A stretch of 60,862 bases of DNA from Bacillota bacterium (GTDB taxonomy: Bacteria > Bacillota > Limnochordia > Darwinibacteriales > Darwinibacteriaceae). Each line of letters starts with the position of its first letter. The stretch's first letter is position 1. The position numbers were made by a program, and so were the translations under genes. The stretch spans positions 1 through 60,862 of the forward strand of contig JAAYMM010000017.1 of assembly GCA_012521335.1 (NCBI GenBank). Direction: 5' to 3'. This document shows positions 15,442 through 41,149 of the stretch, piece by piece. The notes under the pieces are model-generated. The model did not search any database. It worked only from the letters and a program-made list of their open reading frames with translations, and was not told where the DNA came from.

Positions 15442-15479
15442 ATCCGGCCCTCCCAGTTCTTCAGCTTTCGAGAATACTA

Positions 15480-15488
15480 TGGTACAAT
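15480..15488 (+). promoter_or_regulatory. Extended -10 promoter candidate for the GH3 gene
   Basis: TG-G-TACAAT in the 86-bp divergent intergenic region. Confidence 0.45.
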
Positions 15489-15527
15489 TTAACAATAACC
15501 CATGTTCGGAAAGACGGTGATAACAAA

Positions 15528-17687: not shown

Positions 17688-17693
17688 CATGGG

Positions 17694-18560: not shown

Positions 18561-18577
18561 TGCGTTTCCCTCCCCTG

Positions 18578-22503: not shown

Positions 22504-22516
22504 GTTGCTTTCCCCC

Positions 22517-23644: not shown

Positions 23645-23661
23645 CACACACCTCCCGTGTA

Positions 23662-24606
23662 TTACCCCACAATTCCCGTACGCTCCACGCTCTCCACGAA
23701 GTAGCGCTGCAGGAAGACGTAGAGGATCAAAAGGGGCAGGATCACCAAAAGCATTCCGGCATTGTTGATCAGAGAATAGAAGTGATCGTCGAGGAAACCG
23801 CTGGTTGACGCCAGCGCATCGGCCTCGTCGATGGCTTTGGCCACGCGCGAGGCCGCGCCTTCCAGGGCTTGGGGCAGGAAATTGCGCCCGGCCATAAAGG
23901 TGGTTACATACAGGTAGTCATTCCACTGCCAGACAAAGGAGAAGAGAAATGTGGTGATCAAGCCCGGGACAGCACCGGGAATCATCACCCTCCAAAAAGC
24001 GGCGAAGGGGCCCGCCCCATCGATGTAAGCCGCTTCTTCCAGCTCTTTGGGCATGCCACGGAAGAACTGGCGCATGATGAAGATGTACAAACCGCAGCGG
24101 AAACCCGTACCGGTTAAGCTCATGAGGATGAAAGGCCAGTAGGTGCCGATCAGGTTGAGCGAGCGGCCCTTGAGCAGACCCAAAAAGTCAAAGAAGCGGA
24201 AACTGAGATAGGTTGGGGTCATGATCAGCTGAGGCGGGATGATCAAGGTAAAGATGGCCAGGCCAAAGATGAGTTTGCTTCCGGGAAACCGAAAACGGGC
24301 CAGGCCGTAGCCCACCATGGAACAGGTAATCAGCTGCAGAGCGCTGGTTAAGGCCGTCAAAAACAGCGACCTCATGAAAGCACGGGGGTATTCCATATGC
24401 TCCCACACCAGCCTGAAGTTGCGCAGAGTTGGATTCCTGGGTATCCAGCGCACGGACTGATCATACAAGTCTTCGATGCTCATGAGCGCCGTGGACAGCC
24501 GATAGATCAGGGGCAGCAGGATCACGTAAGCGATGCCGATCAACAACACCGTGCGCAGCAGGGCCACCACGCGTTTTCTCCACTTTTCCTTGGCTGCTAG
24601 GCTCAT
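23662..24606 (-). CDS. Carbohydrate ABC permease (MalG-like)
   Basis: ELEEAAYIDGAG motif; ATG 24606 has the best SD spacing. Confidence 0.92.
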   Translation of the reverse strand: MSLAAKEKWRKRVVALLRTVLLIGIAYVILLPLIYRLSTALMSIEDLYDQSVRWIPRNPTLRNFRLVWEHMEYPRAFMRSLFLTALTSALQLITCSMVGYGLARFRFPGSKLIFGLAIFTLIIPPQLIMTPTYLSFRFFDFLGLLKGRSLNLIGTYWPFILMSLTGTGFRCGLYIFIMRQFFRGMPKELEEAAYIDGAGPFAAFWRVMIPGAVPGLITTFLFSFVWQWNDYLYVTTFMAGRNFLPQALEGAASRVAKAIDEADALASTSGFLDDHFYSLINNAGMLLVILPLLILYVFLQRYFVESVERTGIVG

Positions 24607-24621
24607 ACTCATACCTCCCTG

Positions 24622-25521
24622 CTAGACGTGATAAAACCCCCGGCGCGAGAGCAGGCCAAACACCGCGAGCAGCACCAGGCCGATGGCGGCAAAATAGATC
24701 ATGGCCATGGCCATGCTGACCCCGTAACCGGCACCGCGCAGCATGGTCTCCCGGATGAGATCCACCAACTTGTTGTTCATGGCTGTGAAAGAGTCGATGA
24801 TCGTGTAGATGATGTTCACTAGAATCAAGGGGCCCATCATGGGGAAGGTGATCAGCCAGAAACGCTCCCAGCCCGTGGCCCCCTCCACGCTGGCTGCTTC
24901 GTACACTTCCCTGGGGATGGACTGCAGCCCCGCGAGGAAGATCAAAATCTGCACGCCGGACGCCCGGATCACTGTGGGCAGGGCTTGGATGGCATCGGCG
25001 ACGTAATCCACCATGCCCGCGGGAAAGCGCGCCGCATCGAAAAAGCTCTGCACGGCAGCCCCGCCGAAAAAGGGAGCACTCTGCTGCAGATGGGTAACCA
25101 TGATCTGGGCGTAGTCTTTCATCTCCATCTTCAGCACCACACCGGCGCTGAGGATGACCGGCAGGAAAAACAGGGTCCTGACGAAAGTGCGCCCCCTAAA
25201 GTCGCTGTTGAGGATGGTAGCGGCAAAGAAGCTGAAACCGATGATCATGGGCAGCTCCGTTGCCAGTTTCACCAGCACTTCAGTGAACGTCTTGGAAAAC
25301 TCCGGATGCACCTGCAGGGCATAGCCATAATTTGCCCACCCTTTCCACTGGAGCTCAAAGGTTTCTGGTGTGAGCACTAGGTCGCTGAAGCTGATCACCA
25401 CTGCTTGATAGAAGGGGACGGCAAACAGGAAGATAAAGCCCACCAGGAAGGGGACGGTAAACAGAAACCCAACCAGCTTCTGCCGGTGCGCGAAGGCCAT
25501 GGGCCGTCTTTTCCTCTTCAT
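24622..25521 (-). CDS. Carbohydrate ABC permease (MalF-like)
   Basis: VYEAASVEGATGW motif. Confidence 0.92.
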   Translation of the reverse strand: MKRKRRPMAFAHRQKLVGFLFTVPFLVGFIFLFAVPFYQAVVISFSDLVLTPETFELQWKGWANYGYALQVHPEFSKTFTEVLVKLATELPMIIGFSFFAATILNSDFRGRTFVRTLFFLPVILSAGVVLKMEMKDYAQIMVTHLQQSAPFFGGAAVQSFFDAARFPAGMVDYVADAIQALPTVIRASGVQILIFLAGLQSIPREVYEAASVEGATGWERFWLITFPMMGPLILVNIIYTIIDSFTAMNNKLVDLIRETMLRGAGYGVSMAMAMIYFAAIGLVLLAVFGLLSRRGFYHV

Positions 25522-25522
25522 C

Positions 25523-28264
25523 TTACTTCCCCCCTTGCACAACCACGAAGCCCACTCCCGGAACCGCAACGTCCGCAGAGAGCTGATAGGGCTGCGCGGT
25601 GTAGTTCACCACTAGCTGAAGGCCGTTGTGGTAAGTCGTAGCACACACATTGGGGGCCAGCACCTGGTGATCGGTGATCACCAGGGGCCATTGGCTGCCC
25701 AAGACATCCCGCACCTGGTTGTAGACGGCGAGCAGTTCCCCCTTGATCTCCCGGAACTGCGTGGAGAGGAGGTAGTCGAAATCTGTGTTTTTGGTGGCAG
25801 ATGACGGTTCCCAGGAAAGGGCGAAATAAGGAATGGCTCCCGTCTCCAGCAGCTTGAGCAGGTAGAAAGCTCCCCTGTGGTCAGATAGGTTGAAAGGTTC
25901 TCCCGCATACTCCACCAACCCGCTCACCACGAGGGCATAGAACGGTACAGTCTGATGGAGAATGGCCTCGCCGCGGGCAAACAGGGGCGCTTCCACCAAC
26001 ACCTCGGCGTAGGGCAGCAGATAGGCGTTGCTGCCTGCGATCATGAGCCCTCTGTCCGCGGACAGCCTGCTCACTTCCTGAGCAATGATTTCTGCGGCCA
26101 TCACCCGGTCTACCAAGGTGGCGGGGTTAAGGCGGTAGTCGCCGTAGAGCAGCAGCCCCAAATCGCCCAGGGCCAGCCTGGAAAGGCCGTAGGAGTTGTA
26201 CTCCTTGAGGAACGCGTCGATCACCCCGGATAGCCGGGCCGGAGATAACAAGGGTATCTGCCGCTGGTCAATGGGCTGGTAGGTGGCAATGTGGAATGTG
26301 TTGAGCACAGCGGCACTGCGATCCAAGCCCCTGGGAGCATGGATAAATTGAACATAAAGGTCCAAAAGGTTGTTGCGGTGCACGCGCAGGAAGTCTACGC
26401 TGGGGTATAAGGCTACACCAAGCTCCTCCAGGGACCTGCTCAATTGCTGCCAGGTGCGCTGAGTGCCGGCGGCCTTCTCCAGAAGCGCTCCCCGGGGGTA
26501 AACATGGCGGATGCCGCCGCGCAGCCAACCCAGGTAGCGCACTTTGAGCTCGTCGACTCCCGCAGCCAGCAGATCATCCACGATCAGCCGCACCTGTTCG
26601 TGAGTGGTGAGCGGCTCCACCACGTTGGTGGGTATGCCCAATACGGGCTTGATCTGGTCAAACGATCCCAAAACATCCACCAGCAGAGGCAGCCCAGATC
26701 TGGATGGCAGCAGCGTTAAGCCGTGCTTCTCCATGAGATAATGCCGATAGGCTCTGGCCATGCCTGCATAACTGGTGTCTTCTTCTGGGAGGAACACGTA
26801 ACGCAGGACAATATCATTCTTGTTCAGACGGGCCTGGTACATCAGGATGGACAGCCGCCTCAGGTGGATGAGCTCACCCTCGGCCTCCATGTTCACCCGG
26901 GCTGAAGAACGGACCTCAAAGGATGCCCAGACTCTGTTGTAGGAATCGCGCATGCCGGGCAGCATGGCTTCAATCCGGGCCGAGGCATCACCCTCTTCAA
27001 TGATGGCCAGAAAGGCCTGTCCGTTGTTCACCATCCCGAAGACGGGAAGATAAATCTGCTCTTTGAGCATCGCGGAATATTCCCTCAGGGGCACAGCCGC
27101 GTAATCCTGACCGTACACCCTGCGGCTGTAAGGTTCCGCCAGCGGCGTGGGGCGGTTGAAGTAGATCAGTGCCCCCGAACCATCAGGGACAAACATGTAG
27201 CCTGCATCCTCTGCGCCGCCGGCGCCAAAATAGGGCAGCACACTGAGGGTGGTCAGGGGATAAGATACCTCCCGCTCATTCTTGGCATCCCACACCCGAT
27301 CAGGAAAAGTGATTTCCTCCGCAGGGATCCGCACAAGCAGGTCTCCTCCATCCAGGAGGTATTCCACCACAACTGTAAACTGGCGGAGATCGGGATAGGG
27401 CGGAGCGACATTGTAGTACTCATGATCGAAGGCCACGTCTTCCGGCGTGTAGCCAGCTGCCTTGACCAGTTGGATAGCATCCTCTATGTCCCACTGCATC
27501 ACATTCCATTTCAAAAGCAGGGTGGGAGTATTGCGCAGGGCCACGATCTCTTCCGGCTTTACATCCCCCAACGAAGCGTACTGCTTGTGATCCCTGATCA
27601 ACACCAGGTACTCTTGGAACAGACGCCTTTTGTCTGCGGTGCGGAACCGGGGCTCATCGACCTTGATGCCCCAACCGTCCAAAAGGCGGTCGAAGTCCAC
27701 GCCCATAATGCTCAAGTCTTCACCGCTGTCATAGCCCTCTTCTAAACTAAAGAGGCCGTACATGTCGCGCAGAAAGGCGCGATCCTTTTCCTTGGCGATG
27801 TTGGCCAGGATCAGCTCGTTGAACCGCTCTTCGGAAATGATGGTAGGCAGGTAATCCCGATCCTGCCAAGTCTTGCCGAACTTGTATTCTACCCGCAGCC
27901 CTTGCTCCAAGGGGATGATCGTGTACTGCCCGTGGGCCACGCTGTCGTTGAAGCTGTCCATCTGCTGCTGTTGGTTGGCCGCGTAGTAGGTAATCACCAG
28001 CTGCGAGCTCAACCGCGCCTTAGCGGCGCCCCTGGCCAGCGTCTCCTGCTGATCTCTCCCGGGAGGATTGGAGAACCAGAGCGCACCCGTCTCCTTGTGC
28101 AGCAGGGCGATCTCAGCGGTATCCGGCTTGAAGTACAGCTCCAGGAACTCGTTTTCTGCTCCCTTTTGGAAACCGGGAGGCAGATCGGCAGCGCCTGCTG
28201 TGGCTGTCCAGGCGGCCAGGGCCACCAGGAGCGCAGCCAACAGGACAAGCAGTCTCGCACGCAT
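25523..28264 (-). CDS. Large secreted uncharacterised protein, DUF5696-like (913 aa)
   Basis: Signal peptide; segments YMFVPDGSGALIYFN, VYGQD, LPVFG, RYLGWLRGG recalled as typical of proteins in this conserved ABC neighbourhood. Confidence 0.7.
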   Translation of the reverse strand: MRARLLVLLAALLVALAAWTATAGAADLPPGFQKGAENEFLELYFKPDTAEIALLHKETGALWFSNPPGRDQQETLARGAAKARLSSQLVITYYAANQQQQMDSFNDSVAHGQYTIIPLEQGLRVEYKFGKTWQDRDYLPTIISEERFNELILANIAKEKDRAFLRDMYGLFSLEEGYDSGEDLSIMGVDFDRLLDGWGIKVDEPRFRTADKRRLFQEYLVLIRDHKQYASLGDVKPEEIVALRNTPTLLLKWNVMQWDIEDAIQLVKAAGYTPEDVAFDHEYYNVAPPYPDLRQFTVVVEYLLDGGDLLVRIPAEEITFPDRVWDAKNEREVSYPLTTLSVLPYFGAGGAEDAGYMFVPDGSGALIYFNRPTPLAEPYSRRVYGQDYAAVPLREYSAMLKEQIYLPVFGMVNNGQAFLAIIEEGDASARIEAMLPGMRDSYNRVWASFEVRSSARVNMEAEGELIHLRRLSILMYQARLNKNDIVLRYVFLPEEDTSYAGMARAYRHYLMEKHGLTLLPSRSGLPLLVDVLGSFDQIKPVLGIPTNVVEPLTTHEQVRLIVDDLLAAGVDELKVRYLGWLRGGIRHVYPRGALLEKAAGTQRTWQQLSRSLEELGVALYPSVDFLRVHRNNLLDLYVQFIHAPRGLDRSAAVLNTFHIATYQPIDQRQIPLLSPARLSGVIDAFLKEYNSYGLSRLALGDLGLLLYGDYRLNPATLVDRVMAAEIIAQEVSRLSADRGLMIAGSNAYLLPYAEVLVEAPLFARGEAILHQTVPFYALVVSGLVEYAGEPFNLSDHRGAFYLLKLLETGAIPYFALSWEPSSATKNTDFDYLLSTQFREIKGELLAVYNQVRDVLGSQWPLVITDHQVLAPNVCATTYHNGLQLVVNYTAQPYQLSADVAVPGVGFVVVQGGK

Positions 28265-28295
28265 ATGCTTTCAGCCCCTCTCAGAACGCTTCCAG

Positions 28296-30455
28296 CTAAG
28301 TACGATGGATGGCCTCAGTGATCAACTGGCGGACGAACAGAACCACCTGTTCGGTCAGGGCGATAAACAACAACCCCAAAAAGAGGGCGAAGGCCATGCC
28401 CAACAGGGTAGAAATGCAGGTGAAGATGGTCTTGCTAAAGTCATACTCATGGGTGACCATGGTGGCGCCTACTACCAAAAGCACAACGGCCCAGCCCAAC
28501 CCCAAGGACATGAGCATGTAATAGAAAGCTCCTTCTTCGGCGATGAGGAAGTTGCTGATCATGGTCAAGGGCACAACGGTCAGGATGACAGGAATGAGGG
28601 CAAAGGCACTGGCGATGTAGACATCCCGCAGCGTTCCCTTGCCTTCCATCAAGGTGGTCAGAGCCCAGTTGACAAAGGTCCAGAGCAGGAAGGGCAGCAC
28701 AACACTGCCGATCTCCACCAAGAGATTGATCTTACTCAGATCTGCCCTGTTGAAGATGAAGCCCGTGTACTGGCGAGCAAAGACAAAGGTAAGCACAACC
28801 AGGGCTAAGATAATGGTGGCGGCCAAGGGTGTCCCCCTCTGTTCTTTCTTCAACCTTTCGAAACCGTCAAAGGGATGGAAGATGATGTATAACCCGAAGC
28901 GCAGGCTGTTTAGCGTCTTTCGGCCAAACCGGGCCCACTTCGCCTGGGCTGCGGCTGCCTCCTGCGCCGCGGGCAGGCTGGGCCTGCCAGGCCTGAACCT
29001 GCGGAAGAGGAAAAACGCGGCGAGCAAAACCGCGCCTGAGGCGAAGGCTTGGGGGAAGTGGGCATAGACCAGTTCTTTTCGATACAGCTCGAACGCCTCA
29101 GAATACTCAGCACGGTTGTTGCCCAGCCTGAAGTTTTCCATAGCCTGGGCGTATTCGCCCCTTCTAAGCAGCGCCCGGCCGATGCCAGTGTAGGCCACAT
29201 CGAAGTTGGAGTTGAGCACCAGAAGCTGGCCCCAGATTCTTTCAGCCAGGTGGTAGTCGCCCCGCTCGTAAGCATCCAGGGCAGCCCAGATGAGGAGCGC
29301 ATAGTCGGTGGGCTCGAAAACCACGATACCTCCACGCTGGGCATCCAGGACAAGCATCGTTTTGCCCAGATGGTCCAGGGCCACGGGACTGGCCACCTGG
29401 CCGTGCCCTGAACCCCAGTAGCCAAAATCGTAAAGAAGGTTGCCGTTGTTGTCGTAGGTGAATACCCGCCCCCGATTGCCGTCGAGCACGCTATACACTC
29501 CGTAGGGTTGTACCGTGATATCCACCAACATGGAGGATGTGCGCCGGGTGGCTGTGGACCAGCGGTCGGGGAACTCCACATCACCCATGGGATCGGCAAA
29601 GCCCAATCGCCTCAGCAAGTCTTGGCCCTTGGCGTTAATTTTACGGACCTTGATGGCGATTCCGCCTTGATCTTCTTCCTTATCCTCAGCATGGCTGGTG
29701 GCGTAGATGAAACCCTCCGAGTCCAAATCGAAGTTGGTATACTCTGTGGGCAGAAAAGCCCGGATCCTCTGGCGCTGTTCCTTGGTGGCGAAGCGGCTCC
29801 ACAGGTATTCGGCCAAACTGGGCGTAACGCGGGGCGCGCCCAAAAAGCCGCGAAACTGACCGTCGGCACTAAAGCTGATGAATCCTTCGTATAAGTCTTG
29901 GGCGATCACATAAATCCGGCCGTGCTGATCCACGCCCACCTTCAGGGGCCGGTAGTTGAAATTGGCGGGAAGGATCCCCTCAAACTGTGCCTGGGGAGCA
30001 GGCACGATCCGGTTGAGAGTCCCGTCTGGATTGAGGTGTACAATGCGGCCGTTGCCCGTATCGGCAACGTAAATGTGGCCCTCGGGAGTGACAAAAAGGC
30101 CCATGGGAGAGTTGAAGCTGTCGTCATCGCCAAAACTGGAGATCACGCGCACCAGCTGGAAACTGCCATCGGCCACAACCAGGCGGTTGTTGCCCGTATC
30201 GGCGATATAAATCTCGCCCTGCGCGCTGACAAACAGGTCATTCGGATTCTTCAGCGGCCCCACCTGCAGATCGTCCCCCAGGATGATCCGAGACGGGAGA
30301 TAGGCCTGGGGGCTGGGTACCGCCTTCTGCCAGAAATCATACAAATAGCTGGTGTATGGAACAGTGAAGTTGGTAATTGAGGTGCCTTGGGCGTAAGCAG
30401 AGCAGCAAGCCGCCAGCACGGCCACCAGCACTGCACACACCTTGCGCCACATCAT
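28296..30455 (-). CDS. NHL-repeat / TPR / Yip1-domain membrane protein (719 aa)
   Basis: Signal peptide, repeated YIADTGNNR / YVADTGNGR (NHL), TPR-like helix pair (AYTGIGRALLRRGEYAQAM), C-terminal multi-TM Yip1-like domain (HPFDGFERLK...). Confidence 0.8.
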   Translation of the reverse strand: MMWRKVCAVLVAVLAACCSAYAQGTSITNFTVPYTSYLYDFWQKAVPSPQAYLPSRIILGDDLQVGPLKNPNDLFVSAQGEIYIADTGNNRLVVADGSFQLVRVISSFGDDDSFNSPMGLFVTPEGHIYVADTGNGRIVHLNPDGTLNRIVPAPQAQFEGILPANFNYRPLKVGVDQHGRIYVIAQDLYEGFISFSADGQFRGFLGAPRVTPSLAEYLWSRFATKEQRQRIRAFLPTEYTNFDLDSEGFIYATSHAEDKEEDQGGIAIKVRKINAKGQDLLRRLGFADPMGDVEFPDRWSTATRRTSSMLVDITVQPYGVYSVLDGNRGRVFTYDNNGNLLYDFGYWGSGHGQVASPVALDHLGKTMLVLDAQRGGIVVFEPTDYALLIWAALDAYERGDYHLAERIWGQLLVLNSNFDVAYTGIGRALLRRGEYAQAMENFRLGNNRAEYSEAFELYRKELVYAHFPQAFASGAVLLAAFFLFRRFRPGRPSLPAAQEAAAAQAKWARFGRKTLNSLRFGLYIIFHPFDGFERLKKEQRGTPLAATIILALVVLTFVFARQYTGFIFNRADLSKINLLVEIGSVVLPFLLWTFVNWALTTLMEGKGTLRDVYIASAFALIPVILTVVPLTMISNFLIAEEGAFYYMLMSLGLGWAVVLLVVGATMVTHEYDFSKTIFTCISTLLGMAFALFLGLLFIALTEQVVLFVRQLITEAIHRT

Positions 30456-30477
30456 CGCCCACCTCCCTGCTGTGAGA

Positions 30478-30507
30478 AGGTCTGTGAGCCTTGAGGCTCA
30501 CAGACCT
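30478..30507. other. Intercistronic 13-bp hairpin without U-tract
   Basis: AGGTCTGTGAGCC-TTGA-GGCTCACAGACCT. Confidence 0.75.
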
Positions 30508-30523
30508 AAACCGCTTCCCTGCT

Positions 30524-31831
30524 TTACTGCTTGAGGTACTCGTCGATCATGGCCTGGCCTTGCGGCTTGAACTCGTTGACGATGGTGGAAGCCACTCCGC
30601 CGCCCTTGATACCCTCGATCACGCCGCCATAGGGCGTCTGATTCTCGTACCAGGCACCAAGGAAGTTGTGGTAGTAGGCGGCGTCGCCGTTCACCTCGGC
30701 AAAGGCCCTCTGGAATACTTGATACGAGGTGCGGTCATAGGCACGATCGCGGATCATATCTTCCATGGCCTCGTAGTAGTCCTCCAGCGGGAAGAGGAAG
30801 TTGTCCAGAGCGATCAGGCCCAGGGGATAGGCGGCATTTCTGGGTATGAAGATGGCATCGGCCACCCCAGGTGCGAAGACATAGTCATCGACATCATCGC
30901 CCATGGGCAGGGGCAGGATTCCGTGCCTGAATTCGTACTAGCTGGGGTTAATCTGCCAGAACGGCATGATGCCGATGGCTGTGCGGCCGGTGATGAACTC
31001 CCTCATCTGCCAGTCACCGTAGGAAATGCCCAGCACGTTTTCCCACTCAGCCAGTTTGCGCAGGGCGTTGATGGCCTGAGGCTCATCCAATGCATAATAG
31101 ACTCTGCCGTCATCGCCCAGCCTGGTGATGGCGCCTCCGTTGCTGAAGATCATGAACATGGGATCGATGAAAGCGAGCGCCCACTGGTCCACAACCCCAT
31201 CACCATCTGTATCACGGGTGACCTGGCGGCCGATCTCCTCCACGATCTTCCAGTTCCATTCATTGTTCTCATAGAGTTCGTAAGGATCCGGCAGGCCTTC
31301 CCGCTCGAACAGGTCGAGATTGACCACAGCAAAAGGCGCATGGCCGAAGTCGTCGGGAACACCTACGGAGAAGTGGAAGACATGCCCGTCATAGGACAGG
31401 CGCTCATTCTTCTCGCGCGTAATTGGTGAGAGCTGTTCAAAGTACTCGGGAGGCAGAATCTCGTCCACTGGGTAGAACGCGCCGCGGGTAGCCAGGGTGA
31501 AGAAATCCCTGTGGGGCAGGCGCCAGATGTCATACTGCGAGTCGCCCGACAGATAGCGGTTGAGAGCCAGTTGTCCGACTTCATCCCAACCTGCCGTGAT
31601 CAGCTGGATGTCACCGATATTGAACAGCTTCTTAGCCTCTTCCAGCCGTCCCGCGCGTGCTCCGCCTTCGTAGAAAGCGGATAAGTTGTCGAAGTGTGCT
31701 ACATAGGTTACTGTTGCGCCTTGGAAGTCAATGGGTCCGAAGTCCATGCGGTCAGATTCATAAGCCAATACGACGGGCGATATTGCCGCTGCTACGAGCA
31801 GCACAGCAGTAAGCAATCCAATCTTTCTCAT
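30524..31831 (-). pseudogene. Sugar ABC solute-binding protein interrupted by one in-frame TAG (30938-30940)
   Basis: ORFs 30938..31831 and 30524..30904 share a frame: ...FWQINPS*YEFRHGILPLPMGDD...; joined length 435 codons; Sec signal peptide. Confidence 0.8.
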
Positions 31832-31912
31832 TGACTTATGTCCTCCTTTGCTTTTCCTTCCTTACTCCCATCCTCCGGTGCAAAAGCAATCTCTTCTAGG
31901 AGCCCCCTCCCT

Positions 31913-33139
31913 TCATTCCCCTGTGGTGTGATCTGCCCAGCGATCATTGGGCAGCAGCGGATACCAGCCTGGTCTTCTGGAATCTCGGTCGTATGGGTAG
32001 TTGCCCAGCTCTTTGTACAGCTCAGCATACTGCTGTACTTTATCCCGATCGAGCCTAACTCCCAACCCCGGTTTATCAGGCACTTGGATCTTGCCATCAA
32101 CGATCCGGAACTTGCCTCCTTGCACGATATCATCCCGCAGGTGGTGATAGTGGGCATCGATGGCAAAGGATAGACTGGGCAGCACGGCACCAAGGTGCAG
32201 CATGGTAGCTAACTGAATGCCCAGTTCACCTGAGGAGTGCACTGCCACGCCCAGCTGAAATGTCTCACATACATTGGCCGCTTTAATGCAGGCTCGAATT
32301 CCGCCCCAGAACGTGGTGTCCAGCAGGATCACATCAACGGCAGGATGGAGGACATTCTGCGCCAGCTGCTCGAAGTTGACCACAACGGTGTTGGTGGCCA
32401 GGGGTATGCGCGTGTTCTCCCGCACCCGCCGCATTCCGTTTAAGCCCCAGGTGGGGTCCTCTAGATAATCATTGCGCAGATCCTCAATTTGCCGGGCAAA
32501 CCAGATGCTCTCTTCCACACTCCAGCAGGCATTGGGGTCGATCCGGAAGGCATCCCCGGGAAACTCCGCTGCTAAGGCGCGGTAAGCTTCCAGCTCGTAT
32601 TCGGGCCTGAATACGCCCGCTTTCAGTTTGTGGGTACGGAAACCATAGCTCTCCTTGAGGTGCTGGGTGTGGGCGAGGAGTTGGTCTATGGTGCGCACCT
32701 CATCGTAAAGCCCATCTTCACTGCGGTAGCGGAAGAAAAGGTAGCTGGCTAGGGGGATCTCATCCCGCAGTTTGCCGCCTAAGAGCTTGTGCACAGGCAG
32801 CCCCAGTTTTTGGCCGATAATGTCTAGGCAGGCAAACTCAATGGCCGCCATGAGCTGGGTGCGGTTGTTGTACAAGCTGGCCGTGGGATTGCAGATTTTG
32901 AAGCGCAGTTCTTCCAAAGCAAAGGGATCGTGGCCCACCAAGTAGGGCTTGAGGCCCAGAAACTGCAGCTCTGCGCTCTCGCCGCCGCCTCCCATCTCGC
33001 CCAAGCCGATGATCCCTTCATCCGTTTCCACCTCAACGATGGTGCGGACAAATCGTCCCCAGTGTTCACCATTGCTGTGCCGCAGGGGTGCTTCGAGCGG
33101 TACTGTAACTGTGGTCGGCCGAATGTCCACGATTTTCAT
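31913..33139 (-). CDS. Enolase-superfamily acid-sugar dehydratase, glucarate-dehydratase-like subgroup
   Basis: HKLKAG (KxK), RIDPN, YLEDP, LATN, AVHS: the D/E/N metal-ligand pattern of the GlucD subgroup; ATGA overlap with the GntR stop. Confidence 0.88.
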
Positions 33140-33870
33140 AACGACCATCCTTTCGCTGTGCCGACGCGTGACGCTTGGACAAAATAGCCGGGATACTGGG
33201 CCAGCAGCTCATCCTCTTCCACCATGATCATGCGCAGGTGGTCGGTCATGATTTTTCTCGCCTCTTGGGCCTTTCCCTCTCTTAAGGCTTGGAAGACGGC
33301 TTGATGCTGCCTGAGAATCTGTTCCCAATTCGAGTCATGGGATAAACGGAGTACTCTCACTCGGTAAAAGTCTAGATTCAGCTGCTTAACCATGTCATAG
33401 GTCAGCTGCTTGCCGCAGGCGCGGAAAATAGCGGCGTGAAACTCGTCATCTAGGGCCAGCATGCGCAGGTAATCCTGGTTCTGGCAGCACTGCTCTTGCG
33501 CAGCCAGATTGTACTCCAGCTCCCGGATGTGATCGTCAGATAGACGCCCAGCCGCTTCCTCAACCACTGCCGTTTCCACAATCTCCCGTACCCAACGCCC
33601 TTCTTCCATCGACTCCAAGTTGATTAAAGACACATAGGTGCCGCGCTGAGGGTAGATCTCCACTAGACCATCTTGATGGAGGTGAACAAATACTTCGCGC
33701 ACGGGTGTGCGGCTCACTTTGAACTCCTCAGAAATCTCCTGCTCGGACATCTTCGTGCCCGGCTTCAAATGCAGATGAAGAATACTATGGCGCAGGGTGT
33801 TGTACACGAACTCCTTTGCCGACGCCCGCCTGCGCGGGGGGCGCCGCGCCGCAAATCTAGGTATGCTCAT
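33136..33870 (-). CDS. GntR-family regulator with FCD domain (RspR/YdfH-like)
   Basis: w[21 protein letters not shown]...YPQRGTYV; FCD motif DDEFH...H...H. Confidence 0.92.
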
Positions 33871-33885
33871 CGCCTCCCGAGGATA

Positions 33886-33940
33886 ATACTACCATGGTAG
33901 TATGCTTTAATATTAAATAACATTTTCCTAAAAGTCAACC
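33886..33940 (-). promoter_or_regulatory. sigmaA promoter + 18-bp palindromic operator for the GntR operon
   Basis: TTGACT-N17-TAATAT, 6 nt, then the perfect palindrome ATACTACCATGGTAGTAT (33886-33903). Confidence 0.85.
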
Positions 33941-33955
33941 TTGTTTTTACTCATT

Positions 33956-36900
33956 TCAATCTCCAGGCGGTTTGCTCGGAGCAACCGGCAGAAACTGCAG
34001 CCAGGCCAGATCGAACCGGGAGCCTGGCAGGAAGATCAGCCGCACCTGCGCCCTACCCTGAACAGGCTCAAGGTCAAACACCCGCTCCGTATAGTCCTCC
34101 GCGTAGGCAAACTCCACCTGCCGGCGGTCTTCCCTTTCATCCTGGATCAGGCTGAGCTGCACCGGGGCTATGGCCAAAGGGGTGCGTCCGCAGAGAACCA
34201 GCCCTGCCGCGCCTTCAGGCCCGAAGTCAAGTTCGCCAAAATCTATGGTGACGTTGTTGCCGATCCCTTCAAGGCAGTCTCCCTTAAAGGCAAACTGGTC
34301 GCCGTAGATGCGGCTGCAGTCGGCCGCGGGGATCCTGGCAAAGGCCCTCCGCTGCTGCACGAATCTGAAGCCTTTGATGTGCATCTTGTCCTGGGTGACC
34401 ATCCAGAGCGAAGTCACGCCCTTTAAGCGCTTAGCGAGCTGGTAAGTCTCACTCTGGTACACATTCCATCTTGTCGGCTTTTGGTAGACCGTGTCCAACA
34501 AAAGCACGCTGCCCTTTTCCCCGGGCCGTCCTTCCCACAGCTGCAGGGGATAGGGGCGACTGGTCAGGGCGAAAATTGGGATGGTGATGGTATCCGAACC
34601 ATCGGGGCCGAAATCCAGGGCGGTAAAGCCCACCTGCGTTTCCGCTCCCCTGGCCGTGGCCACCCCCCTCTCGTTGCCCGGGCCCACTTCCCCCACCACA
34701 GCATCATAAAGGCTTCCCGCTGTGAACTGGTAAGGATCTTTGCACAGCGTACCCAGGCCCACCGCCTCAAACTCCAGTTCAGCAAAGAGCCGGACAGCAG
34801 CAGTACCATTGGTGCTCAGGCAGCGCAGGCGAAACTGGCCGTCCCCGAGCGCCTGCAGGCGTACCCAATCCTCGCCGGCCTCCACGATCTTGGCCAGAGG
34901 TGAGTACGCTCCCCCAGGGTGCACCACCCGCCAGTCAAGGCTGCGGTAGGAGGTGTCCGGGGGATACAGCTTAGCCTGCACCGTAAGCTCCTTGCGGTCT
35001 GGCGTGAATACCCGGCTTCCCTCGGCCCGCAGCTCAATCTTGCGCAGGGGCACCTCTCCCAGGCGGCCCGTGTGGATTGGCCGCGGCTGGTTGCGCTCCT
35101 GGGCCGCGACTCCTTGGGGCGGCCCGCCAGCAGTGGGCCGGCTGAAGAAGTGCGCTTCCGCCTTGGGCAGGCTGGGGGAGACAACCTCCAGTTTGATTTC
35201 TCCCGGTTCCCGAATGGCGGCGATTATGGCGCGCAGCTTGCCGCTGAACAGCCTCCTGCTGATTCCCTTGAAGGAATCGTAATCGGTGCTGTCTCCGTTA
35301 TCCAGGCCCACCAGACGCCCAGCGCCGCTCACGAACACCTCCACCCGGTTTTGGGCGTTTTCCACCGGATTGCCTCGGGCATCTTCCATGGAGATTTCCA
35401 CGAAGATCAGGTCTGAGCCATCAGCCTGCAGGTCGGTTTTGTCAGCTTGGATCCTGATCCTGGCCGGATCCCCAAAGGAACGCCGCACCGCGCAGGCCAA
35501 AACGGTGCCGTCCTCATCTAGGGCTGTAGCCTTCAACTCGCCGGGTTCAAAGGGTACCTTCCAGCTGGTGACGTAGAGGTGCTCAGGCTCACGCAGGTTC
35601 CTCCATCCCACCTCCTTACCATTGAGCTCCAGCTTGACCAGGGGCGCGTTGGAGGCCACCCGCACATCGATGATCTGGCCGGGACTGAAATCCCAGTACG
35701 GGTAGAGGTGCACCATGGGGTGTGTCTTATAATCAGTCCACGCAGCTTGGTAGATATAGTAAGAATCCTTGGGAAAAGATGCAGTATCTAACTGGCCGAA
35801 GAACGAGTTCTTGCTGTGGTAAGGGGTGGGCTCGCCTAAGTAGTCAAAGCCCGTCCAGATGAACTGGCCCAGAGAATAGGCAGCCTTCCGCTCCACATCC
35901 AGGCAGGCTTGGGTGCTGGCGGCCCCCCAGCTTACGGGACTGTTGCCCAGGGCTGAGCACTGGCCATCATCCTCGCCCAGGATAGTCACCTCCAATGGGA
36001 AGTGGTAAATACCCCTGCTCTGCACCACTGAGCTGGTTTCGCTGCCGTAAAGAACCCAATTGGGGTGTTCTGCCCGGTGGCTGGCATACAGATGGGCTCC
36101 GTAATTGTAACCCACGGCATCCAGCAGCTCTGCGCAGCGCTGGGTGTTTTCCCACTGCAGGTAGTTGGAACCAAAGGTGAGCAAGCCGTTACCCCGCGGG
36201 TCGTGGCGGCGCACCAGGGAGATGAGCTGACGGGTCAGTTCCAGTCCCCGTTCACCCAATTGGGTGTCTAGAATCTCATTGCCGATACTCCACATCAGCA
36301 GGCTGGGATGATTGCGGTCTCGGCGGATCCAGCTGGCTACATCGCGCTCCACCCACTCTGGAAAGAAGCGGGCGTAATCGTAGGTGGTTTTGGGTAGTTC
36401 CCAAACGTCGAAGGCCTCACTGATCACCAGAAAGCCCAGCTCATCCGCGAGTTCCATAAACCCCTTCGCCGGCACGCTGTGCCCAGTACGGATGGCATTC
36501 ACTCCCATGGCCTTCAGCAATTGGAAGCGCTTTCTCAGGGCATTTTTGTTGAAGGCTGCGCCCAAAGCCCCCAGGTCATGGTGCTCGCAGACACCGTGGA
36601 GCTTGAGCCTGCTGCCGTTGAGGACCAATCCCTGATCCGGGCTTAAGGCCACTTCCTTGAAACCAATCTTCTGCAACGTGCTGTCCAGCACCTGTCCCGT
36701 CCGGGCATCAAGCAGCTCAGTAAGGAACGTGTACAGCTTGGGCCGCTGCGGGCTCCAGCGCTCCACTCCCTGCACAATCAGCTCCTGAGTGTTTGTCACT
36801 AGGCCCTCAGCGCCATCCAGCCGCGCTTGGGATTGGGCTTTCACCGTTTGCCCCTGGTAGATGGTGTGCACTACCGTCAGGGGCGTTCCTGAACCTGCCT

Positions 36901-37408
36901 GCACTTCACATTCCACGCTCACCTGCCAGGAGTCTGCCTGCCCCAAAGGTCGGCTGTGGACGTAAAGGCCATCCGTAACGAGATAATCCAAGCCTCTCAT
37001 CTTCAGCCATACGTTGCGGTAGATGCCTGCTCCAGAATACCAGCGGCTGTTGGGCGCTTGGTGCACCACCTTAACTAGGACTTCATTGCGGCCTGGCCTG
37101 AGGGCATGGGTGATTTCGTGTTCAAACGAGGTGTAGCCGTTTTTCCAGTCTCCGATCCAGGTACCGTTGACCAACAGGGAAGAGTCCATGTAAACGCCTT
37201 CGAAATAGAGGAAGATGCGCCCAGTCCCACTATAATCCACATGACGCCTGTACCAGCCGATGCCGTCTGCATAGAGGTTTTTGCAGTCGTAAATCAGCCA
37301 GTCATGGGGCAGATCGACGCTGCTAAACTCCAGCCCAGCAGGGCCGCTCTGATCTAGTGGCCCGAGGGCAAACTGCCAACCGTCATTGAGCAAAATGGTC
37401 TTCCCCAT
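33956..37408 (-). CDS. GH2 glycoside hydrolase (1150 aa) with C-terminal accessory domains
   Basis: GVCEHHDLGALG, NAIRTGH, RDRNHPS, acid/base WSIGNE, YGSET, WTGFDYLGEPTPY. Confidence 0.92.
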   Translation of the reverse strand: MGKTILLNDGWQFALGPLDQSGPAGLEFSSVDLPHDWLIYDCKNLYADGIGWYRRHVDYSGTGRIFLYFEGVYMDSSLLVNGTWIGDWKNGYTSFEHEITHALRPGRNEVLVKVVHQAPNSRWYSGAGIYRNVWLKMRGLDYLVTDGLYVHSRPLGQADSWQVSVECEVQAGSGTPLTVVHTIYQGQTVKAQSQARLDGAEGLVTNTQELIVQGVERWSPQRPKLYTFLTELLDARTGQVLDSTLQKIGFKEVALSPDQGLVLNGSRLKLHGVCEHHDLGALGAAFNKNALRKRFQLLKAMGVNAIRTGHSVPAKGFMELADELGFLVISEAFDVWELPKTTYDYARFFPEWVERDVASWIRRDRNHPSLLMWSIGNEILDTQLGERGLELTRQLISLVRRHDPRGNGLLTFGSNYLQWENTQRCAELLDAVGYNYGAHLYASHRAEHPNWVLYGSETSSVVQSRGIYHFPLEVTILGEDDGQCSALGNSPVSWGAASTQACLDVERKAAYSLGQFIWTGFDYLGEPTPYHSKNSFFGQLDTASFPKDSYYIYQAAWTDYKTHPMVHLYPYWDFSPGQIIDVRVASNAPLVKLELNGKEVGWRNLREPEHLYVTSWKVPFEPGELKATALDEDGTVLACAVRRSFGDPARIRIQADKTDLQADGSDLIFVEISMEDARGNPVENAQNRVEVFVSGAGRLVGLDNGDSTDYDSFKGISRRLFSGKLRAIIAAIREPGEIKLEVVSPSLPKAEAHFFSRPTAGGPPQGVAAQERNQPRPIHTGRLGEVPLRKIELRAEGSRVFTPDRKELTVQAKLYPPDTSYRSLDWRVVHPGGAYSPLAKIVEAGEDWVRLQALGDGQFRLRCLSTNGTAAVRLFAELEFEAVGLGTLCKDPYQFTAGSLYDAVVGEVGPGNERGVATARGAETQVGFTALDFGPDGSDTITIPIFALTSRPYPLQLWEGRPGEKGSVLLLDTVYQKPTRWNVYQSETYQLAKRLKGVTSLWMVTQDKMHIKGFRFVQQRRAFARIPAADCSRIYGDQFAFKGDCLEGIGNNVTIDFGELDFGPEGAAGLVLCGRTPLAIAPVQLSLIQDEREDRRQVEFAYAEDYTERVFDLEPVQGRAQVRLIFLPGSRFDLAWLQFLPVAPSKPPGD

Positions 37409-37424
37409 ACCCTGTTCTCCTCTC

Positions 37425-37442
37425 GTAAGCTGACCAGCTTAC
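37425..37442. promoter_or_regulatory. Second palindrome just upstream of the GH2 RBS
   Basis: GTAAGCTG-AC-CAGCTTAC. Confidence 0.4.
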
Positions 37443-37497
37443 TGTCCTGTTCCATTATTTTCATGGAGTTAAAACAAATAACCCGCCGTAAATTATG

Positions 37498-37553
37498 GGT
37501 TGACTTTTATCAAAATGTAAGATATTATCCAAGTATACTACCATGGTAGTATA
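37498..37553 (+). promoter_or_regulatory. sigmaA promoter + palindromic operator for the third ABC operon
   Basis: TTGACT (37500-37505), N17, TATTAT (37523-37528), then TATACTACCATGGTAGTATA (37534-37553). Confidence 0.88.
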
Positions 37554-37574: not shown

Positions 37575-38513
37575 ATGAAAGGCAGATTGACGATCAACCG
37601 CAGACGAGTAATCAACTACCTGCGCAAGTACTGGTCCTTATATGTCATGCTGTCCATCCCCATCGCGTATTTCATTATTTTCCGATACATTCCCATGACC
37701 TATATCCAGATCGCCTTCAAACGCTACAGCATCGTGCAGAGCCCGTGGGAGATGCCCTGGGCCGGCGACAACGGTTTTGAGTATTTTATCAAGGCGTTCC
37801 GCAACCTGGATTTCCTCTATGCTCTGAGAAACACCCTCCTGCTGAACTTCCTCGATCTGATCATGGGCTTCCCCGCGCCGATCATCTTGGCTCTGCTCCT
37901 CAACGAACTGGCCTTTCCGCGGTTTAAGCGCCTGACGCAATCCGTGGCCTATCTGCCCCATTTCCTGTCCTGGATCATCATCGCCGGCTTGGCCAAGCAG
38001 CTTTTTGCCCCCACCTCCGGCTTGATCAACATTTTCCTGAACAGGCTGGGCTTTCAATCCATTCCGTTCTTGAACGATCCCACCCATTGGGTGTTTACGT
38101 ATGTGTTCCTAGGCATCTGGCGCAATGTGGGCTGGAACACCATTATCTACTTAGCGGCCCTCACCAATATCAACCCGGAACTCTACGAGGCTTCAGCCAT
38201 CGATGGAGCTAACCGCTGGCAGAACATCTGGTACATTACTCTGCCTGGGCTGCGCCCAACCATTTTTACCCTGCTCATCCTCAGCCTGGGCAACATCTTA
38301 AGCAGCGAGTTTGACCGCCCCTATGCTCTGAGCAACCCCTTGGTCAACAGCGTGTCCAACGTAATCTCCATCTTCGTGTACCGTTACGGTATCAGGGGCC
38401 TGCAGTTCTCACTCACCACGGCGGTGGGCCTGTTCCAGTCGGTGGTGTGCGTGATCTTCTTGGTTGCAGCTAATGCACTGGCCAAGAGGTTCGGAGAACG
38501 GGGTATTTGGTAA
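37575..38513 (+). CDS. ABC permease (LplB/YteP-like)
   Basis: LPHFLSWII, WNTIIYLAAL, ELYEASAIDGANRW. Confidence 0.92.
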   Translation: MKGRLTINRRRVINYLRKYWSLYVMLSIPIAYFIIFRYIPMTYIQIAFKRYSIVQSPWEMPWAGDNGFEYFIKAFRNLDFLYALRNTLLLNFLDLIMGFPAPIILALLLNELAFPRFKRLTQSVAYLPHFLSWIIIAGLAKQLFAPTSGLINIFLNRLGFQSIPFLNDPTHWVFTYVFLGIWRNVGWNTIIYLAALTNINPELYEASAIDGANRWQNIWYITLPGLRPTIFTLLILSLGNILSSEFDRPYALSNPLVNSVSNVISIFVYRYGIRGLQFSLTTAVGLFQSVVCVIFLVAANALAKRFGERGIW

Positions 38514-38532
38514 GAGAAAGCGGTGATGAACT

Positions 38533-39405
38533 GTGGTTAAGTCCAAACGGACCAAAGCAGGAGATCTGGCCATCGCCTTTGTCTGCGTACTGCTGATCCT
38601 TGTGTGCTTATTGCCCATGCTCAACGTTCTGGCCAGGTCTTTGAGCTCAACCGAATACATTATCCGCAATGAGGTCCTGCTCTGGCCGAAAGGCTGGAAC
38701 GTGGAGGCTTACCGCCTGGTGCTGTCTGACAGCAAGTACACCTGGTCCCTGGCCTGGACAGCCATCCTCACGGTGATCTGCGTGGCTGTGTCCATGACCA
38801 TGACCATTCTCTGCGCTTATCCCCTTATTTACCGGGATCTTAAGGGCAGGCGCTTCTTCAACACCATGATTCTCTTTACTATGTACTTCAGTGCGGGCAC
38901 CATCCCCCATTACCTGCTGTACAAAGACCTGGGGCTGCTCAACCATCCCTTGGTGCTGATCATCCCCAACAGCTTGTCCGTGTTTTACATGATCATCATG
39001 CGCACCTTCTTCTACTCTATCCCAGACAGCCTGCGGGAATCTGCAGAGATCGACGGGGCGGGCCCTGTGCGCATCCTGTTCTCCATCTACCTGCCGCTCT
39101 CCAAACCGGTTCTGGCCACTCTGTCGCTGTTTTACGCCGTGGGGCGCTGGAACGGATTCTCTGATGCCTTAATGTACATGAACGATCGCCGCTACCATCC
39201 CATCCAGCTTCTGCTCTACAACATCCTCAATGCGGTAACCAGCATCGAAATCCAAACCCAGGAGGGCTTTGCCAGCGCACCGGGCATCTCCGATACCATT
39301 CAGGCTGCCACAGTCATGTTCGCGACTGTGCCCATCCTAATCGTCTACCCCTGGCTCCAGAAGTACTTCATCAGCGGAGCCACCTTAGGGGCCCTTAAGG
39401 ACTAA
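38533..39405 (+). CDS. Carbohydrate ABC permease (LplC/YtcP-like)
   Basis: SLRESAEIDGAG, YAVGRWNGF, YPWLQKYF. Confidence 0.92.
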   Translation: MVKSKRTKAGDLAIAFVCVLLILVCLLPMLNVLARSLSSTEYIIRNEVLLWPKGWNVEAYRLVLSDSKYTWSLAWTAILTVICVAVSMTMTILCAYPLIYRDLKGRRFFNTMILFTMYFSAGTIPHYLLYKDLGLLNHPLVLIIPNSLSVFYMIIMRTFFYSIPDSLRESAEIDGAGPVRILFSIYLPLSKPVLATLSLFYAVGRWNGFSDALMYMNDRRYHPIQLLLYNILNAVTSIEIQTQEGFASAPGISDTIQAATVMFATVPILIVYPWLQKYFISGATLGALKD

Positions 39406-39475
39406 TTCCATTTAACGAGGCTGCAATGCACTTCGGTGCTGAAAAAAACAAGAGAAAAGGAAGGGATTACTGGCC

Positions 39476-41083
39476 ATGCGAAAGAGACTGTTTGTCGTGC
39501 TGTGCTTGTCCCTGCTGGTGTTAGCCAGCTCGGTCCTGGCGTTCGCGGCGGATCCAGGGTTTGTGAACGGACGTTTCACAACCACCCGCAAGATCACCGT
39601 GGAAGTCTATGACCGCAGCAACCCCGGCGGCTCCACCCCGGAAGACAACTTCTGGACCGACTTCATCAAGAAAGGCATGCTGGAGAAGTACAATGTGGAA
39701 GTAGAGTTCAAGCCGGTACCCCGCTGGACAGAGGTTGAAGTAATCAACAACCTCTTGGCTGCCGGCGATGCCCCCGATGTCTGCGTCACCTACAGCTATC
39801 CCACCATCCAGACCTATGCCAACATGGGCGGCGTCCTGGATCTGGCGCCCTATCTGGAAGAGTACAGGGAATACCTGCCCAACCTGTTCGACCTCCTGGG
39901 TGAAACCAACATTTACTGGAACCAGGATCCCAACACCGGCACCGTCTGGGCCATTGAAGCCCTGCTCTTCCAGAACAAGAAGATCAACACCTTTGTCCGG
40001 GAAGACTGGCTGAAGAAGCTCGGCCTGGAAGAACCCAGGACCATGGAAGAGTTTGAAAACATGCTGCGCGCCTTCCGCGACAACGCCGAGCTACTCCTGG
40101 GACCCGATGCTGACAAGATGATTCCCTTCTCCCTCAGCTTCGACGTGGGCTGGAGAGCAGACCATGTGATCATGTCCTATGTGCCCAACGACATGTCCGA
40201 TCGGGATATGTGGGTCTACGGCTTTGATGATCGCCATCTCTTGTGGCCCAACTACAAAGAAGGCGTGCGCAAGCTCAACCAGTGGTACAATGAAGGCTTG
40301 ATCTGGAAAGACTTCCCGCTCTACGGCGCTGGCGACCGCACCGAAGACAACCTGATCAAAGCCGGTTATGTCGGGTCCTTCATCCACAACTGGGACTATC
40401 CCTATCGTGATGGCCAGGAAGGCATCCACGCCCAGCTGAGAAACATGGTGGGCGAAGATGCGGCCTTCATCGCTGTGGAGTGCTTCCCCAACGATGCCGG
40501 CATCTACCGCAAGTACCTCAGCGCTCCCGTGGACAGGAAGGTCTTCTTCCCCGCCACCAACAAGGAACCGCTGGCTTCCCTGCTCTATCTCGACTTCATC
40601 TCCAGCCTGGAAGTCCGCCGCTTCCTGCAGATTGGTGAAGAGGGCGTGCACCATATCGTCCACGAAGATGGCGCCGTTGAAATGCTGCCCGTGGTGGGCG
40701 AGAAGATCATGAACTCGCCGGCGAACATTGACTACACCATCACCATCAACGGCCTTGACCTGGGTGATCCCGTCCTCACCGCCCGGTCCATTGCTCTCAA
40801 CTATGCCGGCGTGGAAGCCAAGTACATTGAACGGGCTTACCAGATCACCAGCAACGAAGCCCGCTACGGCATCAACGTCCAGGTTGGCGAGATCAAAGCT
40901 CAAGAGGGTATGGACACGGCTCTGGCGGAGAAACGGAACAACCTCTTGGCCCAGGCCATCGTAGCTAAACCCGAAGACTTCGATACAGTCTGGGATCGCG
41001 GTTTCAATGACTACCTCCGCTCCGGCGGCCAGGCCATCATTGATGAACGGGCCCAGAAGTACGATGCCATGTATGGCAACTAA
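39476..41083 (+). CDS. Extracellular solute-binding protein (LplA-like), Sec signal without lipobox
   Basis: Signal ...VLAFA-A, NLLAAGDAPD, FVREDWLKKLGL; follows the permease pair. Confidence 0.9.
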   Translation: MRKRLFVVLCLSLLVLASSVLAFAADPGFVNGRFTTTRKITVEVYDRSNPGGSTPEDNFWTDFIKKGMLEKYNVEVEFKPVPRWTEVEVINNLLAAGDAPDVCVTYSYPTIQTYANMGGVLDLAPYLEEYREYLPNLFDLLGETNIYWNQDPNTGTVWAIEALLFQNKKINTFVREDWLKKLGLEEPRTMEEFENMLRAFRDNAELLLGPDADKMIPFSLSFDVGWRADHVIMSYVPNDMSDRDMWVYGFDDRHLLWPNYKEGVRKLNQWYNEGLIWKDFPLYGAGDRTEDNLIKAGYVGSFIHNWDYPYRDGQEGIHAQLRNMVGEDAAFIAVECFPNDAGIYRKYLSAPVDRKVFFPATNKEPLASLLYLDFISSLEVRRFLQIGEEGVHHIVHEDGAVEMLPVVGEKIMNSPANIDYTITINGLDLGDPVLTARSIALNYAGVEAKYIERAYQITSNEARYGINVQVGEIKAQEGMDTALAEKRNNLLAQAIVAKPEDFDTVWDRGFNDYLRSGGQAIIDERAQKYDAMYGN

Positions 41084-41101: not shown

Positions 41102-41141
41102 AAGGGGCTGCACTTGATTTTGGTGCAGCCCCTTCTTTTTT
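41102..41141 (+). terminator. Intrinsic terminator
   Basis: AAGGGGCTGCAC-9 nt-GTGCAGCCCCTT followed by CTTTTTT. Confidence 0.85.
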
Positions 41142-41149
41142 GGTGCTGG

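Follow-up and report, generated by a model that had tools for sequence, protein, structure and literature searches.

The stretch of DNA considered here (the window, 60,862 nucleotides) is one whole contig, C20, of a metagenome-assembled genome from the class Limnochordia (1.72 Mb in 93 contigs). It contains a gene for a GH2 glycoside hydrolase enclosed by two inverted copies of a 55-nt cassette, each made of a predicted promoter and a perfect 18-nt palindrome. The minus-strand arm, cassette R, precedes a gene for a GntR-family regulator of the FCD subfamily, and the plus-strand arm, cassette T, precedes perm1, the first gene of an ATP-binding cassette (ABC) importer operon. We argue that the palindrome is a putative operator of this regulator. 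The features on which the argument relies are as follows.

33886..33903, minus strand: putative operator R, a perfect palindrome of 18 nt, ATACTACCATGGTAGTAT, whose start is 6 nt downstream of the -10 hexamer of the GntR promoter
33904..33940, minus strand: predicted promoter R; GG, -35 TTGACT at 33938-33933, 17 nt, -10 TAATAT at 33915-33910, discriminator TAAAGC; 9/12 consensus positions
37498..37534, plus strand: predicted promoter T; GG, -35 TTGACT at 37500-37505, 17 nt, -10 TATTAT at 37523-37528, discriminator CCAAGT; 10/12 consensus positions
37535..37552, plus strand: putative operator T, palindrome ATACTACCATGGTAGTAT, 22 nt upstream of the perm1 start codon
33136..33870, minus strand: GntR-family, FCD-subfamily transcription factor, 244 aa, the first gene downstream of cassette R
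31913..33148, minus strand: enolase-superfamily acid-sugar dehydratase, overlapping the end of the GntR gene by 13 nt (Pfam MR_MLE_C, 5e-54)
33956..37408, minus strand: GH2 glycoside hydrolase, 1150 aa, with Pfam GH2 domains, enclosed by the two cassettes
37575..41083, plus strand: ABC importer operon; perm1 37575-38513, perm2 38533-39405, 535-aa solute-binding protein (SBP) 39476-41083

A repeat search recovers the cassettes as an inverted pair, 33886-33940 (minus) and 37498-37552 (plus), 55 nt long and 84% complementary (46 of 55 positions), which is the longest inverted repeat within 30-42 kb; the longest run identical between the arms is 18 nt. The same arms, with the same coordinates, sequences and identity, were reported in a preliminary description of the window, which also placed in each of them TTGACT, 17 nt, a -10 hexamer and, 6 nt after it, the perfect palindrome, and in all these particulars it is exact. 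The common layout is GG, TTGACT, a 17-nt spacer, a -10 hexamer, 6 nt and ATACTACCATGGTAGTAT, and the 17-nt distance between the hexamers is that of sigma-70/sigma-A promoters. Cassette R sits between the stop of the GH2 gene (33956), which is co-directional with the GntR gene, and the GntR start (33870); cassette T is divergent from the GH2 start (37408). Promoter R is the sole intergenic promoter-like match on the minus strand from 17000 to 34000, and promoter T is nearly invariant across five species of the window's genus. At up to three mismatches the palindrome has two matches in the window, against 0.00 expected from shuffled sequence, and these are its only matches in the whole 1.72-Mb genome. 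A genome-wide motif scan, which the preliminary description had proposed, gives the same answer: with a position weight matrix (PWM) built on 33 orthologous sites, both copies score 36.2 bits and the next best site 9.8 bits, a margin well outside chance. No further operator was found in this genome by mismatch scans (up to five mismatches) or by the PWM scan; one rejected candidate is described at the end.

The regulator was searched for in the 40 nearest genomes and the exact 14-mer core of the palindrome, ACTACCATGGTAGT, in 95 genomes of the class, and gene order was mapped in 20 regions from relatives (below, g1, g5, g6, g8, g9 and g10 denote genera, labels such as G006 genomes, and labels such as L047 regions of relatives). 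All 16 GntR orthologues in the nearest genomes, 49-75% identical, have the palindrome directly upstream, behind a TTGAC -35 and a -10 element. The 14-mer occurs in 17 of the 95 genomes, every one of which carries the GntR/FCD orthologue; put the other way, it is present in 17/19 regulator carriers and in 0/76 non-carriers (Fisher p = 6.7e-17). The two remaining carriers have a degenerate copy ahead of the GntR gene, and an orthologous site is found upstream of GntR in 19/19 carrier genomes of the class and upstream of perm1-perm2-SBP in 16 genomes. Regulator-bearing genomes typically hold exactly two perfect 14-mers, and in the mapped regions one site always stands before GntR and the other always before perm1-perm2-SBP. 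A site that precedes both the regulator's own gene and its targets, and that is conserved together with the regulator, is what is expected of the regulon of an autoregulated local repressor.

This two-site arrangement spans eight genera and is kept under varying gene order. The two sites flank GH2 at a distance of 3.6-5.2 kb in g1, g9 and g10, and in g5, g6 and g8 the GntR and transporter sites are on different contigs. The dehydratase gene of G006 has been relocated away from GntR and bears a third site of its own; in this genome and in G008 GntR heads an operon with GH67. Over 33 cassettes, the geometry of -35, 17 nt, -10, 6 nt and 18-mer is preserved in 32, and spacers differ between genera. 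The 14 core positions are identical in 32-33 of the 33 sites, with no compensatory changes. The exceptional geometry belongs to cassette R of G012 (L010, around position 2243), in which the operator lies 8 nt further from the -10 and the insert repeats part of the left half-site (ATATACTACTATATAT). The operator before GntR in G008 (L011/L073), where the regulator is kept (64% identity) and the transporter and dehydratase are absent, has decayed to ACTGCCATACTAGT in a preserved promoter geometry. Seven of the eight one-mismatch sites in relatives lie inside coding sequence without promoter context and were taken as chance matches; the only plausible one, in G041 (contig C238), is upstream of a GH3 gene.

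Protein assignments were based on Pfam, NCBIfam equivalog cut-offs and relatives in the PDB. The 244-aa regulator has both domains that define the FadR/FCD subfamily, a winged helix-turn-helix at the N-terminus (PF00392, residues 19-80, 9.5e-19, 67.3 bits against a cut-off of 27) and a C-terminal FCD domain (PF07729, residues 94-213, 2.9e-25, 89.6 bits against a cut-off of 24.3), and its PDB relatives are FCD regulators. In NCBIfam, no equivalog matches it at or above cut-off. We regard it as highly likely, judging from the sequence comparisons, that ATACTACCATGGTAGTAT is the operator of this adjacent GntR/FCD protein, which would be an autoregulated repressor controlling both promoters. A dimer of the protein would bind the palindrome and cover about +1 to +18 of two sigma-A-type promoters. 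It would thereby block RNA polymerase at the promoter of the operon of GntR and dehydratase, probably together with the xylan-uptake genes downstream, and at the promoter of the perm1-perm2-SBP importer, until an effector released it. Sugar-acid repressors already known in the FadR subfamily act in the same manner, as DgoR illustrates (PMC11705089). In this model we infer the binding itself, repression rather than activation, the transcription starts, the effector and the length of the leftward transcript. DNA looping between the operators was considered and set aside as unnecessary, the sites being unlinked in five genomes. The dehydratase is a predicted core member of the regulon. Among NCBIfam families it comes closest to glucarate dehydratase, but its 174.6 bits are far under the cut-off of 828.7.

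The neighbours of the cassettes and of the regulon genes also include a GH67 alpha-glucuronidase, a GH3 xylosidase-like enzyme and a SASA-type (acetylesterase-like) esterase, and the locus is a glucuronoxylan one. FCD regulators typically sense carboxylates. The acid-sugar dehydratase, the ABC importer, the presence of GH67 in the operon in some genera and the GH3 site of G041 all suggest an acid of the uronic or aldaric type that stems from glucuronoxylan; the effector is thus most likely a sugar acid of this origin, such as glucuronate, 4-O-methyl-glucuronate or a product of either.

Several observations weigh against the operator assignment or limit its reach. The FadR-subfamily consensus is NyGT-Nx-ACNy, with TKGT and ACMA boxes and 2-3 nt between GT and AC (PMC4494728). 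The palindrome departs from TKGT-N2-3-ACMA: it has both boxes, TGGT and ACCA, but everted and with no gap between them (ACCA|TGGT). The two flanks also differ in conservation, in that AGT is kept on the promoter side in 27-31 of the 33 cassettes and the mirror positions are not conserved, so that part of the signal may belong to the promoter or start-site region; this AGT flank forms a canonical mini-box, AGTATACT, at the promoter-side edge in 18/33 cassettes, with no counterpart at the opposite edge. Regulator, transporter and dehydratase are gained and lost as a set, and for a module inherited in this way co-occurrence alone does not exclude another co-travelling factor. Finally, the distal 14 kb and GH2 are at most candidate targets. 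The possibility that the palindrome is bound by a different transcription factor, not encoded alongside, draws on the first and third of these points, the box order outside the canonical one (PMC4494728) and the inheritance of the module as a block, which makes co-occurrence less than fully discriminating. We nevertheless consider it improbable: no other regulator gene is conserved in the module, and the site always stands directly before the GntR gene, whichever partner follows (enolase, GH67 or SBP module), which is the usual signature of autoregulation. A still less probable alternative is that the palindrome works mainly as RNA, forming a 5'-terminal stem-loop in both transcripts that affects their stability or translation. 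A start about 7 nt past the -10 would indeed make the palindrome the 5' end of the mRNA, and it can fold into a hairpin of 7-8 bp (-6.3 and -8.7 kcal/mol), but the fold of the R leader is no better than that of shuffled sequence (z = -0.06), Rfam gives no match, and among the 33 sites it is the sequence itself that is invariant, without compensatory changes in the stem. The invariant core, the weak hairpin and the absence of an Rfam match argue for a DNA site recognised by protein; a secondary role in RNA is possible. On balance, the preliminary description's proposal of a GntR operator serving both transcription units has strong support from both phylogenetic footprinting and phyletic co-occurrence, and the leftward unit of about 16 kb, which it called an operon, may form a single transcript.

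The similarity of the two cassettes extends beyond what a shared regulator would require, and two further explanations have been built on it. Excluding consensus positions leaves 23, which make up the spacer and discriminator. Cassettes R and T of the same genome agree at 15-18 of these in the five species of the window's genus (15-19 over all R-T pairs within the genus) and at 3-12 in other genera; all 100 R-by-T pairs from other genera give a mean of 8.4/23 with standard deviation 1.8 and maximum 13, and the binomial probability of at least 15 shared positions is 5e-4. This extended identity is real, and it calls for common origin or gene conversion. The spacer pattern common to R and T is found nowhere else in the genome, even at up to two mismatches, and this rules out a global regulator's motif. 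One could suppose a recent segmental duplication of a single promoter in this genome, in which the palindrome was merely copied and no regulator is shared, and the 46/55 identity, spacer positions included, together with the uniqueness of the spacer pattern, would agree with that. To this we give hardly any credence, given that the two-site arrangement is present in eight genera with mostly unrelated spacers, the similarity stops at the functional edges of the cassettes, and both cassettes, differing at 6-9 positions, are already present in each of the genus's five species, in which GntR shares 71-75% identity with the window's protein. The identity common to these five species implies that the copying or conversion is old. 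The best explanation of the spacer identity is an old, genus-specific event in which one promoter was copied onto the other or converted it, and the two-operator regulon is older than that event. The preliminary description had suggested duplication of the whole promoter: the non-consensus identity beyond the needs of a regulon, seen in this genus only, speaks for it, and a recent date is contradicted by the five species. One spacer position co-varies within species (A/A in G000, G/G in G004), a faint hint of continuing gene conversion.

The other explanation starts from the inversion of the GH2 segment that the preliminary description had thought possible. It sees the cassettes as recombination substrates and the 3.6-kb GH2 segment as an invertible element or phase switch, in which read-through from GH2 would be turned from GntR to the ABC operon. 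A 55-nt, 84% inverted repeat does surround a single gene, as such a segment should have, and in g5 the GH2 gene is oppositely oriented relative to perm1. In g5, however, a different contig carries the GntR cassette, and GH2 is placed in tandem upstream of cassette T, within an unrelated operon and followed by a D12 adenine methyltransferase gene, so that it represents a separate insertion rather than a flip. The synteny comparison that had been recommended shows one orientation of GH2 in 10/10 genomes in which both cassettes flank it. Contig C20 encodes no serine or tyrosine recombinase (the genome's only Resolvase-family gene is on contig C44, and its only Phage_integrase-family genes are on C3), and its assembly is continuous across the two arms. 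At 18 nt, the longest stretch identical between them is short for RecA-dependent exchange. Inversion of the GH2 segment is accordingly not supported and very unlikely; the inverted arrangement follows simply from the outward direction of both operons relative to GH2. A mobile element with terminal inverted repeats was likewise rejected: there is no target-site duplication at the outer edges and no transposase, and the cassettes are at separate loci in g5 and g6.

What the cassettes may do to GH2 is a separate matter. The GH2 stop is 17 nt from the -35 of promoter R, and this interval does not fold (-0.7 kcal/mol). No terminator was found between GH2 and cassette R, so GH2 transcripts must run into the R operator. 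A repressor bound there may act as a roadblock to this read-through and couple GH2 expression to induction. In regions L045, L048, L049 and L050 (g9, g10) GH2 is followed by a short-chain dehydrogenase gene that ends just before cassette R; the window's genus has lost this gene, and the GH2 stop has thereby come to its present position. A broader reading, in which the cassettes evolve in concert across GH2 by conversion, the regulator recognises everted boxes unlike the FadR geometry, and the R operator serves as a roadblock for GH2, is tentative, and we rate it as rather unlikely in this combined form. As for the promoter of GH2 itself, a single consensus match was found, CTTACA-18-CATAAT, which the genus does not conserve. 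Between cassette T and the GH2 start (37440-37495, minus strand), g1 and g10 share a conserved element consisting of ATTTTAC, 13-15 nt and (A/T)TTTAAC(C), which has no sigma-70 promoter match and may be the real control region of GH2 or a site for another regulator. The g5 methyltransferase gene between GH2 and cassette T (L056:7608-8402 and L058:9214-9999) encodes a D12-class N6-adenine DNA methyltransferase (Pfam 5e-44), with no obvious restriction partner within the examined stretch.

Comparison with solved structures places the window's regulator in a known family without disclosing its specificity. The closest relative, PDB structure 7u5q (residues 14-230, E = 1.5e-29), spans both the winged helix-turn-helix and the FCD domain, and it is an uncharacterised GntR-family protein from which no function, operator or effector can be transferred. 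PDB structure 7c7e, which we take to be DgoR, is another detectable relative (E = 8e-11). E. coli DgoR is the product of the leading gene in the operon that it represses, binds inverted repeats overlapping the promoter, and responds to D-galactonate (PMC11705089). The similarity to the dgo system lies in a repressor-first operon with an acid-sugar dehydratase of the enolase superfamily, in a transporter, and in a sugar-acid effector, which in our case is inferred (PMC11705089). There are also clear differences. DgoR has a pair of adjacent TTGTAGTACAA-type repeats at one promoter, whereas here one 18-bp palindrome with everted boxes is found at each of two promoters; the transporter is an ABC system in its own operon, unlike in dgo; and the dehydratase is distinct from DgoD, scoring 107.7 bits where the cut-off is 311.

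The hexuronate regulators UxuR and ExuR of Enterobacteria and GntR of Bacillus subtilis, which belong to the FadR subfamily, are local repressors that respond to sugar acids and have palindromic operators at catabolic and transport promoters (PMC4494728). The repressor proposed here would be local and sugar-acid-responsive in the same manner, with palindromic operators at promoters. In those systems, unlike ours, the GT and AC boxes are in the canonical order and 2-3 nt apart (PMC4494728), and the match of our regulator to the UxuR model of NCBIfam is weak (27.7 bits, cut-off 442). The predicted regulon also resembles those reconstructed by Suvorova, Korostelev and Gelfand in 2015, with an autoregulated factor, a palindromic A/T-flanked motif and fixed sites before the factor and the structural operons (PMC4494728). 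That survey of the FadR subfamily tabulates no factors from Limnochordia and one from Clostridia, and the motif described here would fail its family-consensus filter (PMC4494728). A text search of papers for the motif returned only unrelated primer sequences.

The system is very probably a case of ordinary local regulation, newly seen, at the level of genome comparison, in uncultured Limnochordia. This is the expected kind of control and the surprise is modest; the gain is a handle on the dehydratase and the transporter. Limnochordia are anaerobic degraders of plant fibre with almost no experimentally known regulation, and the pair of regulator and operator is testable. The predicted regulon of two operators, an FCD repressor, a dehydratase and an ABC importer would tie these unassigned genes to one inducer, and the effector of the repressor, once found, would also indicate which substrate the dehydratase and the transporter handle when glucuronoxylan is used. 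A portable inducible promoter part could be made from the invariant 14-bp core and its compact promoter.

Two further features adjoin the predicted transcription units.

17694..31831, minus strand: downstream co-directional genes, 11 open reading frames (ORFs) after the dehydratase, from ORF layout and Pfam
41102..41134, plus strand: strong intrinsic terminator closing the ABC operon, with a 13-bp stem of which 8 pairs are G-C, followed by a T tract

The 11 ORFs comprise an amber-split SBP (two ORFs), an NHL-Yip1 protein, a DUF5696 protein, two permeases, a GH10 xylanase, a giant SBP and two more permeases. Promoter R may drive all of them in one transcript, as suggested by their common direction, the short gaps between them and the lack of intergenic terminators; between 33900 and 17694 on the minus strand neither an intergenic terminator nor a further promoter-like match was found. 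The genes that follow the dehydratase differ in other genera, which bears on the extent of the leftward transcript. The split SBP results from an in-frame TAG at 30935-30937 (minus), which breaks the gene of a 435-aa binding protein (30524-31831) into two ORFs, 297 and 126 aa long; it has no counterpart in seven orthologues from relatives, indicating that this assembly alone has a nonsense mutation or a consensus error here. On the other side of GH2, the importer genes (BPD_transp_1 twice and SBP_bac_1 in Pfam) always follow cassette T in relatives.

Some details of gene starts also deserve mention. A GGAGGCG block before the GntR gene (33868-33879 in the window, and the orthologous places in L040-L050) is conserved. 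The codon after it is ATG only in the window and in G013, and ATT or ATA in most relatives; G001 and G003 have no in-frame canonical start ahead of the conserved N-terminus of GntR. The regulator may use a weak, non-canonical start just 2 nt past the Shine-Dalgarno core. A plus-strand ORF at 41114-42142 (342 aa) has no Pfam match and lies wholly opposite the gene of the 628-aa SASA-type esterase (41150-43036, minus), which carries a GH2_N-like domain; this ORF is probably not a gene. The true starts of GH67 and GH3 seem to be ATG 15441 (minus) and ATG 15529 (plus) rather than those of the longer TTG ORFs. A match to the palindrome with five mismatches in the GH67/GH3 intergenic region, at 15471, was rejected as an operator, since it coincides with an extended -10 promoter and is not conserved in L047. 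The divergent region between the two starts (15442-15528) is 87 nt long and contains that promoter, TGGTACAAT, which would serve GH3.

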